Shown: positions 2,539-2,620 of the stretch, in pieces
How the letters are laid out: the number at the start of each line of letters is the position of its first letter
How positions within the stretch are numbered: position 1 is the first letter of the stretch
Source of the DNA: a virus
Lineage: Duplodnaviria > Heunggongvirae > Uroviricota > Caudoviricetes
Direction: 5' to 3' (one strand)
IMG/VR virus record: IMGVR_UViG_2654587792_000035
Location: 1 to 7,341 of that record
Length of the DNA stretch: 7,341 nucleotides
The notes under the pieces: generated by a model
What the model was told of the DNA's origin: nothing
Databases searched by the model: none
Seen by the model: only the letters and a program-made list of their open reading frames with translations
Translations under genes and position numbers: made by a program

Positions 2539-2620
2539 CGGTGTGTTTCAGTATACACAAAAAAAGAAATACAAAAAGCCTTGACGTGTGTTTCATGCGC
2601 TCATAACATGAAACACACCG
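2539..2620. promoter_or_regulatory. Divergent promoter/operator region with three copies of the 12-bp motif (G)GTGTGTTTCA(TG): 2539-2550 (+), 2586-2597 (+), 2607-2618 (inverted)
   Basis: Copies at 2586-2597 and 2607-2618 form a perfect 12-bp inverted repeat with a 9-bp spacer that overlaps the rightward promoter. The copy at 2539-2550 abuts a leftward -10 (TATACT on the - strand, 2550-2555) in front of the RHH gene. This is the layout expected for a dimeric repressor controlling both divergent promoters. Confidence 0.55.
2581..2609 (+). promoter_or_regulatory. Candidate sigma70 early promoter: TTGACG (2581-2586), 17-bp spacer, TAACAT (2604-2609); predicted transcription start near 2616
   Basis: The -35 matches 5 of 6 consensus positions and the -10 matches 4 of 6 including the conserved first T, second A and last T, with optimal 17-bp spacing. 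It is overlapped by the 12-bp palindromic operator. Confidence 0.5.

Follow-up and report, generated by a model that had tools for sequence, protein, structure and literature searches.

The repeats that fill the intergenic region between the divergent ylcI and icd-like genes of a phage-satellite island raise the question of which regulator reads them and what is controlled from there. The window analysed here, the whole stretch of 7,341 nucleotides at positions 1 to 7,341 of the IMG/VR virus record IMGVR_UViG_2654587792_000035, had previously been described from its letters and open reading frames (hereafter the sequence-only reading) as carrying a genetic switch, in which the ribbon-helix-helix (RHH) product of the leftward gene would act over two divergent promoters, repressing the early operon and its own gene. 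By its gene content the window is an EcCICFT073-type Gram-negative PICI, an E. coli phage-satellite island: co-oriented int and alpA genes stand at the left end, a primase/replication module comes after them, and genes for phage lysis and tails are absent. RefSeq annotation of a closely matching genome places the island between cspD and clpS, and EcCICFT073 itself has the same ylcI/icd module. With the 241-bp region as blastn query, matches were obtained in 1577 of the 5426 complete E. coli genomes, CFT073 and Nissle 1917 among them.

The regulation of these islands has been described mainly with respect to activation. AlpA was reported as an essential activator and was all that was found, the existence of a repressor was left open and the ylcI gene was not mentioned (PMC6092414). 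A later survey reports Bro-N proteins and C4/isrK immunity RNAs from a variable zone, again with no mention of the ylcI gene (PMC10111431), and in a 2026 survey YlcI/YnfO appears solely under the label 'prophage-associated protein' (PMC13612085). The literature searched contains no functional description of YlcI/YnfO/DUF3950, nor of this module. The features of the window are collected in Table 1.

Table 1. Features of the window and, for the elements of the ylcI/icd-like intergenic region, their offsets in related loci (window orientation; offset 0 is the ylcI start codon, window position 2517)
Feature	Position	Strand	Offset in related loci	Basis or remark
Integrase gene (int)	1-1239			
alpA (AlpA)	1662-1868			
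Rest of the leftward operon beyond ylcI (small ORF and hairpin)	1896-2171	-		
Intrinsic-terminator-like hairpin of the leftward operon	1915 to 1896	-		terminator scan
Small basic ORF, 62 aa	1983-2171	-		ORF list; RefSeq: hypothetical protein
ylcI, YlcI/YnfO family, 101 aa, proposed repressor	2214-2519	-		NCBIfam, RefSeq
Candidate operator O_L (site 1), GTG-TGTTT-CA(G)	2541-2551	+	24-33	exact 10-mer; homologous site in all loci
Predicted -10 TATACT of the leftward ylcI promoter P_L	2550-2555	-	34-39 (as GTATAC, its reverse complement)	conserved GTATAC columns
Putative degenerate auxiliary site O1', TTGTATTTCT	2565-2574	-		1 mismatch to the 8-mer core word
Predicted rightward early promoter P_R	2581-2609	+		sigma-70-like match; conserved offsets; predicted start ~2616
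-35 of P_R, TTGACG	2581-2586	+	64-69 (TTGAnn)	followed by a 17-bp spacer
Candidate operator O_R1 (site 2), GTG-TGTTT-CAT	2586-2596	+	69-79	exact copy; this offset in all loci
-10 of P_R, TAACAT	2604-2609	+	87-92 (TAnnnT)	
Candidate operator O_R2 (site 3), reverse complement of GTG-TGTTT-CAT	2608-2618	-	96-109 (centre)	exact inverted copy; almost all loci, either orientation
Possible degenerate fifth site, TTGTATTTCA	2631-2640	-		2 mismatches to the 10-mer
Early/replication operon	2717-5353	+		Pfam, NCBIfam, RefSeq
icd-like gene	2717-2920	+		
ORF of the early operon	2913-3233	+		
DUF4222 gene	3240-3539	+		
D5-type primase-helicase gene	3521-5353	+		
SSB gene	5884-6306			
DUF1441 gene	6572-7057			

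The claimed perfect inverted pair was recovered by pattern search, GTGTGTTTCATG occurring exactly at 2586-2597 on the plus strand and at 2607-2618 on the minus strand with a spacer of 9 bp. The third copy, which the sequence-only reading had placed at 2539-2550, holds in part: the bases there are CGGTGTGTTTCA and the exact 12-mer is absent, whereas the 10-mer GTGTGTTTCA is exact at 2541-2550. Positions 2541-2552 differ from GTGTGTTTCATG by 2 mismatches, and the 2541-2550 site has an exact 13-mer, TCGGTGTGTTTCA, in common with the reverse complement of 2609-2621. This copy does abut the leftward -10 hexamer as described, TATACT being the reverse complement of 2550-2555. Two further degenerate copies (TTGTATTTC, minus strand) were seen at 2565-2574 and 2631-2640, and three copies is thus an undercount for the long-form variant, that is, for modules with a 101-aa YlcI as in the window, the short form being of about 59-67 aa. 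The 8-mer of the first degenerate copy is TGTATTTC at 2566-2573, the second lies 22 bp from O_R2, and the two have in common a 14-nt direct repeat, GAAATACAAA(A/G)AGC. With these included, the site centres fall at 2546, 2569, 2591, 2613 and 2635, giving steps of 23, 22, 22 and 22 bp, or about two helical turns, and the five sites would lie on about one face of the helix.

Such short words invite the explanation that the repeats are chance matches, runs rich in G and T being common, or that they belong to a dispersed REP-like repeat, but the probability of this is negligible. Five copies of the octamer TGTGTTTC are present in the window where 0.30 would be expected, a number reached in 0 of 200 shuffles, and four of the five are located within 2542-2670. 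Similarly, the 197-bp intergenic region holds 5 matches to the 10-mer at up to 2 mismatches, while 5000 shufflings of that region gave 0.23 matches on average and never more than 3, in agreement with the earlier statement that the arrangement is very unlikely by chance. The 10-mer is not found in about 18 kb of flanking chromosome at locus L001, nor in 65 of 68 loci, and is present only in cognate intergenic regions; over the sampled loci and the flank, therefore, the word is confined to cognate modules and is not REP-like. In IMG/VR, 42 contigs carry the exact 33-bp palindrome, all of them in the same island module. The module adjoins in 41 of the 41 IMG/VR palindrome contigs in which the left flank is present, a YlcI with the strand residues LTTV being readable in 40, and contig L098, which also has the palindrome, ends before site 1. 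A copy of the operator in a helper phage was considered and rejected, every IMG/VR match being to the same island module. The repeat observation is real and non-random, with the small corrections given above.

The consensus scan found TTGACG-17-TAACAT as the sole sigma-70-like match in 2300-2950. The inverted pair overlaps this promoter in the manner that had been claimed, since the last base of the -35, the spacer, the -10 and the predicted start are all overlapped: O_R1 begins at the last -35 base and fills the spacer, and O_R2 lies over the last part of the -10 together with the predicted start. Judged against the predicted promoter, sites placed in the spacer and over the start would be repressive. 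On the other side, O_L lies directly against the leftward -10 and extends over the start predicted for ylcI at about 2543. P_L has no good -35 and is treated here as a putative promoter because the consensus scan does not call it in full.

To examine the layout in relatives, 8 diverged versions from E. coli were set in the orientation of the window together with 59 loci of other Enterobacterales, the latter obtained through YlcI alignment. The first 100 bp of the intergenic region contain no indels among 50 distinct sequences, the layout of about 60 modules in the Enterobacterales is likewise free of indels, and the promoter elements and sites keep the offsets listed in Table 1. The GTATAC columns (offset 34-39) rank with the best conserved of the intergenic region in the 50 distinct loci, all of which have TTGA at offset 64, with TAnnnT following 17-18 bp downstream in most. 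The conserved unit is GTG-N5-CA(C), and in the per-column footprint of the 50 sequences essentially everything is conserved except for the two N5 cores. The outer GTG and CA of site 1 are retained in 41 of 43 non-identical loci, and its core matches that of site 2 of the same locus, the mean number of mismatches over the five core positions being 0.47 within a locus.

The orientation of site 3 varies: it is inverted in some families, including that of the window, but direct in others, of which CFT073 is an example. The conserved feature is therefore the individual unit and not the 12-bp palindrome. The description of the repeat as a 12-bp half-site of one long palindrome accordingly gives way to an 11-bp unit, GTG-N5-CAC, each copy of which is probably bound individually. 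Among the long-form loci, 6 of 10 carry an extra copy of their own specificity at offset 47-49 (2565-2574 in the window), as compared with 0 of 52 short-form loci. At the offset of the fifth site a copy is present in 1 of the 10 long-form loci and in 2 of the 52 short-form loci, and the significance of this site is uncertain because among the long-form loci the window alone has it.

The spacing between sites 2 and 3 was also compared and is 22, 25 or 35 bp depending on the locus. This variation is not obviously conserved in helical phase, which counts against reading the sites as YlcI operators.

Two alternatives bear on these positions. The repeats are spaced regularly, at about 22 bp, in an A+T-rich stretch adjoining the replication operon, and they might be iterons of the replication origin of the island, bound by the primase/initiator. 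We regard this as extremely unlikely, as the sites are locked to promoter elements and not to one another, and islands with the same TGTAAG operator differ in their replication protein: L003 encodes a DNA primase family protein, L008 a P4-family primase and L009 a RepA-family helicase. In addition, a position downstream of pri has been assigned to the origin in Gram-negative PICIs (PMC10111431). According to the second alternative, ylcI and the small ORF beyond it constitute a toxin-antitoxin-like or otherwise self-contained cassette, the repeats being solely autoregulatory and without control over the life cycle of the island. Type II toxin-antitoxin systems usually have a small ORF behind an RHH gene, and site 1 is positioned for autoregulation, yet the reading is improbable: no small ORF is annotated after ylcI in L002, L005 and L007, that of the window matches no toxin family in NCBIfam (nor any other NCBIfam model), and two of the three universally conserved sites lie on the core of the divergent P_R and not on the ylcI promoter.

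Assignment of the sites to YlcI rests chiefly on the co-variation of the N5 core with the protein. Between loci, the cores differ at 0.73 positions when the residues of the predicted beta-strand of YlcI are the same and at 3.33 positions when they differ. Core distance correlates with distance at strand residues 10-16 even when the rest of the N-terminal domain is controlled for (partial Mantel r = 0.63, p <= 2e-4 by permutation), and with strand distance when the non-site intergenic DNA is controlled for (partial r = 0.71). The adjusted mutual information of single protein columns with core class reaches its highest values, 0.61 and 0.60, at positions 12 and 14; position 5, which belongs to the N-terminal arm, comes next with 0.55. 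Values of 0.45-0.55 are observed at columns 5, 13, 17, 22 and 43, as expected from shared ancestry, so that the co-variation cannot be assigned cleanly to two residues alone. Tabulated against the core, residues 11, 12 and 14 give a nearly one-to-one correspondence with about 15 classes. Positions 12 and 14, the best predictors of core class, align with Q9 and N11 of Arc, as would suit a specificity read by an RHH ribbon. A natural swap is provided by L003, in which YlcI is 85% identical to that of the window and AlpA is identical, while the strand residues are SLTA in place of LTTV and the operator is TGTAAG in place of TGTGTTT.

The same comparison bears on AlpA, a DNA-binding regulator that is essential for EcCICFT073 induction and activates island transcription (PMC6092414). 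Its gene lies about 700 bp to the left of the repeats, which could on this ground be sites from which AlpA turns on the rightward operon, and the sequence-only reading had listed it as a possible reader of the motif. It is not a plausible one. Over 33 loci, core distance follows the YlcI strand (r = 0.73) but shows no correlation with distance in AlpA (r = 0.045, and 0.033 as a partial correlation given the YlcI strand). In 18 pairs of loci AlpA differs by less than 10% and the operators are unrelated, the window and L003 with their identical AlpA among them; conversely, AlpA differs by more than 50% and the operator is the same in 34 pairs. Sites in the spacer and over the start suit repression and not class I/II activation, and activation by AlpA from these sites is considered very unlikely.

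The protein to which the co-variation points is annotated by RefSeq as a YlcI/YnfO family protein and matches NCBIfam NF041551 (YlcI/YnfO) over residues 9-50 with 63.2 bits against a cut-off of 30. Its predicted parts are an N-terminal RHH domain, at about residues 9-52, and a long helix at the C-terminus (59-98). The full-length AF2 model has an extended N-terminal segment, helices at 19-28 and 35-52 and the long helix at 59-98; DSSP assigns only isolated bridge residues to the N-terminal segment, and the N-terminal domain modelled alone has a pLDDT of 87.6. The predicted succession of a beta-strand and two helices in about 45 residues is that of the RHH topology. In sequence searches, a profile of 35 N-terminal domains had the Arc repressor as its sole PDB match, which was not significant (E = 1.1), and hhalign against Arc gave a probability of 49%. 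Residues 9, 11 and 13 of Arc contact DNA, and a G-x-S/T/N turn at the start of helix 2 is a signature of RHH proteins. In the Arc register, R16 of YlcI falls on Arc R13, positions 12 and 14 on Q9 and N11, and G32-E33-S34, invariant or nearly so in the YlcI alignments, on the G-x-S turn, which in Arc comprises residues 30-32 (G-M-S in the matched 1b28 variant).

The curated models were less informative. The window YlcI matches no Pfam family at E <= 0.01, and there was no significant match to the curated Pfam RHH models (Arc, RHH_1 and similar); PSK_trans_fac gave sub-threshold matches in 21 of 26 homologues (best E = 0.0011). A search of the PDB with the full protein by phmmer returned only the Hef helicase, a match that was judged spurious. 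The label 'RHH gene' given in the sequence-only reading is thus favoured by the predicted fold and the Arc register and not by the curated RHH sequence models, and YlcI is probably an Arc/Mnt-like RHH protein.

Since the pair could form a 12-bp stem, an action at the level of RNA was also considered, either as a transcript hairpin serving as a terminator or processing site, or as pairing targets for an immunity RNA of the kind of P4 CI/seqA and P1 C4. The gene downstream is icd-like, icd being the gene that follows C4 in P1, and a conserved hairpin of the leader has a fourth copy of the octamer (2663-2670) in its loop region. Some related islands carry C4 and isrK RNAs (PMC10111431), as does L006. 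Despite these likenesses, the reading is highly improbable. The third site is direct in many relatives, and hence the hairpin is not conserved; no T-run follows the 12-bp stem; and sites 1 and 2 are upstream of the predicted P_R start. In leader hairpins compared by folding each sequence separately, the AACAC is constant whatever the operator specificity, and the C4/isrK pair of L006 stands further downstream as a separate module. Rfam searches detected neither C4 (RF01695) nor isrK (RF01394), nor any meaningful family, in the window at E <= 1 or in 2590-2740 at E <= 10, whereas both RNAs were detected in L006 as a positive control. The RNA-family explanation was therefore dropped. The 2663-2670 copy was rejected as an operator, as it does not follow the changes of the operator between loci, and it appears to belong to the separate conserved leader hairpin.

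It is, in our view, very likely that the repeats are operators of YlcI, the RHH product of the divergent leftward gene, and that they act repressively. The switch proposed in the sequence-only reading finds strong comparative support, because the sites are fixed in position relative to the promoters in 50 loci and their core co-varies with the strand residues of YlcI. One RHH dimer would bind each 11-bp GTG-N5-CAC unit, with the two-stranded beta-ribbon reading the 5-bp core, chiefly through residues 12 and 14 and the invariant Arg16, and with the N-terminal arm (MATxxKNxKS) and the GES turn contacting the outer GTG/CAC and the backbone. Occupancy of O_R1 between the -35 and -10 and of O_R2 over the -10 and start would exclude RNA polymerase from P_R, and the operon of the icd-like and primase replication genes would consequently be silent. 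A repressor bound at O_L, immediately beyond the leftward -10, would in turn lead to negative autoregulation of ylcI, whose transcript is expected to run through the small ORF to the terminator-like hairpin. The C-terminal helix of Mnt is a tetramerisation domain, and by analogy that of long-form YlcI probably links dimers at sites about 22 bp apart, which would give a single repressing complex over both promoters.

A broader proposal, to which we give slightly less than an even chance, is that RHH proteins of the YlcI family are the master (immunity) repressors of Gram-negative PICIs, existing as at least about 15 mutually orthogonal types that are set by 2-3 strand residues and the 5-bp core, and that helper phages induce the islands by overcoming this repressor. 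Derepression might come from AlpA-driven transcription that crosses ylcI in the antisense direction and continues into the early operon or, alternatively, from a phage-encoded anti-repressor.

The module involves an uncharacterised protein family that resides in widespread satellites without an identified repressor and that appears to possess an unusually clear natural specificity code. With its defined operators and promoters, it is a testable candidate for the missing repressor of the Gram-negative PICIs. About 15 repressor/operator pairs on one scaffold, differing in 2-3 residues and 5 bp, form a useful natural recognition-code set, both for the study of RHH specificity and for obtaining small repressors that are orthogonal to one another. 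The 'immunity type' of an island would also be readable from its sequence and may help to explain the coexistence or exclusion of islands.

Among known systems, the immI region of P22 is closest in logic. Arc and Mnt act there on the divergent promoters Pant and Pmnt, through an operator of 21 bp with two abutting half-sites. In P22 and, as proposed, in the present module, small RHH repressors adjoin close divergent promoters and the operators lie in core promoter elements, autoregulation being combined with repression of the opposing operon. The short form of YlcI (about 59 aa) resembles Arc (53 aa) in size, and the long form (101 aa) resembles Mnt in joining a predicted RHH domain to a C-terminal helix, which in Mnt serves tetramerisation, although the sequence similarity of YlcI to Arc is not significant. 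In contrast to the single P22 operator, the present units are separate, 11 bp in length and 22-45 bp apart; one protein apparently serves both promoters, and a replication operon of a satellite island would be controlled in place of an antirepressor.

The omega repressor of pSM19035, an RHH dimer that reads heptad repeats in direct or inverted orientation, is comparable in its sites. In both systems a symmetric RHH dimer would recognise a short non-palindromic unit in either orientation, as is observed here for site 3, and units are present in variable numbers over promoters. The omega heptads are contiguous, in a 7-bp register, while the 11-bp units of the present locus are about two helical turns or more apart, and omega has no detectable sequence relationship with YlcI. 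The lambdoid immunity regions (CI/Cro, OR/OL) likewise combine a fixed layout with interchangeable specificity types, of which about 15 classes are found here, and recognition residues and operator change together while promoters and spacing stay fixed. They differ in that YlcI is predicted to be an RHH and not an HTH protein, that no Cro-like antagonist is visible at the locus and that there is no tripartite OR1-3. With the RNA-based immunity of P1 (immI, c4-icd-ant) and P4 (CI/seqA) the module has in common an icd-like first gene in the controlled operon and a structured leader before it, and in L006 isrK and C4 precede the icd-like gene. Unlike in those systems, no C4 or isrK is found in the window, and the repeated word appears to act at the DNA level and to be linked to a protein.

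The Stl/Rpr repressors of the Gram-positive PICIs (SaPIs) show the same arrangement of a leftward regulator facing a rightward excision/replication operon and keep the island quiescent, as is proposed here for YlcI (PMC6092414). Stl is, however, a large HTH-type protein unrelated to YlcI, its derepression by specific helper-phage proteins has been demonstrated, and the Gram-negative islands differ from the SaPIs in requiring the activator AlpA. In kind, the module is probably an ordinary RHH repressor-operator switch, closest in its logic to Arc/Mnt of P22 and in the logic of its sites to omega.

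Comparison of the window with the related locus L003 shows mosaicism and suggests that the specificity of YlcI, the proposed RHH repressor, is swapped by recombination as a small cassette comprising the N-terminus and the operators. The AlpA proteins of the two are identical, while YlcI of L003 is 85% identical to that of the window; the cassette exchange is proposed because the differences in YlcI are concentrated in the N-terminal 22 residues (residues 4-22) and the L003 operators differ from those of the window in step with them.

YlcI itself occurs in two forms in a comparison of the window with the related loci L002, L004, L005 and L017-L066: a short form of about 59-67 aa consisting of the RHH only, and a long form of 100-111 aa, for which a helix is predicted at 59-98. 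The long form is associated with an additional operator copy lying between the promoters, found in 6 of the 10 long-form loci, versus none of the 52 short-form loci.

The leader of the rightward operon (window 2647-2711) is conserved and structured, and its elements are listed in the table together with the other features identified. Compensatory stem variants are numerous among the 54 distinct versions of the long hairpin, 85% of which have an MFE z below -2, and the hairpin is invariably followed by TCTnACCA(C) and then by the second, small hairpin. No Rfam family matched the structure in window 2647-2711; a processing site, translational control and antitermination are possible roles. The structure is separate from the C4 and isrK RNAs, neither of which is present in the window. 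The two RNAs occur as a pair in one related island, L006 (1847-2032), and therefore some islands combine the YlcI/operator module with an RNA immunity module of the P1/P4 type.

Features identified in the window and in related loci
Feature	Locus	Position	Strand	Location
Long leader hairpin	window	2647-2680		rightward operon leader
TCTAACCACCAAC	window	2680-2692		between the two leader hairpins
Second, small leader hairpin	window	2692-2708		abuts ribosome-binding site
SD	window	2708-2711		rightward operon leader
Small ORF, 62 aa	window	1983-2171	-	same strand as ylcI, downstream of it
Intrinsic-terminator-like hairpin, good	window	1896-1915	-	after small ORF
isrK	L006	1847-1923		between conserved leader hairpin and icd-like gene
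C4 antisense RNA	L006	1945-2032		between conserved leader hairpin and icd-like gene
AntA/AntB antirepressor-family gene	L007	1-643		alpA-ylcI zone
Fragments annotated icd-like pseudogenes	L002	1080-1359		alpA-ylcI zone
Fragments annotated icd-like pseudogenes	L008	872-1351		alpA-ylcI zone

Further along the rightward operon, nine consecutive G residues (window 2902-2910) occupy the end of the icd-like gene, and the ATG that opens the following ORF (2913) comes directly after them. With such a length, the homopolymer may be a slipped-strand site, and it could function as a strong Shine-Dalgarno-like element as well.

Against most near-identical genomes (H1, H2 and H4-H15), alignment of the window falls into two pieces over about 9.9 kb; the window therefore, like H3/L001, appears from these alignments to be a shorter variant without about 2.5 kb found in those genomes, where a ClpP-like prohead protease/major capsid fusion gene is among the features under the matches.

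The small ORF downstream of ylcI encodes a very basic product with an RKRRRRK run that matched no family. Some relatives (CFT073, L009) have this ORF and others lack it; its product may be a partner or resemble a toxin, or the ORF may be spurious. Between alpA and ylcI the related loci vary, which fits the 'dynamic zone' described for the Gram-negative PICIs.
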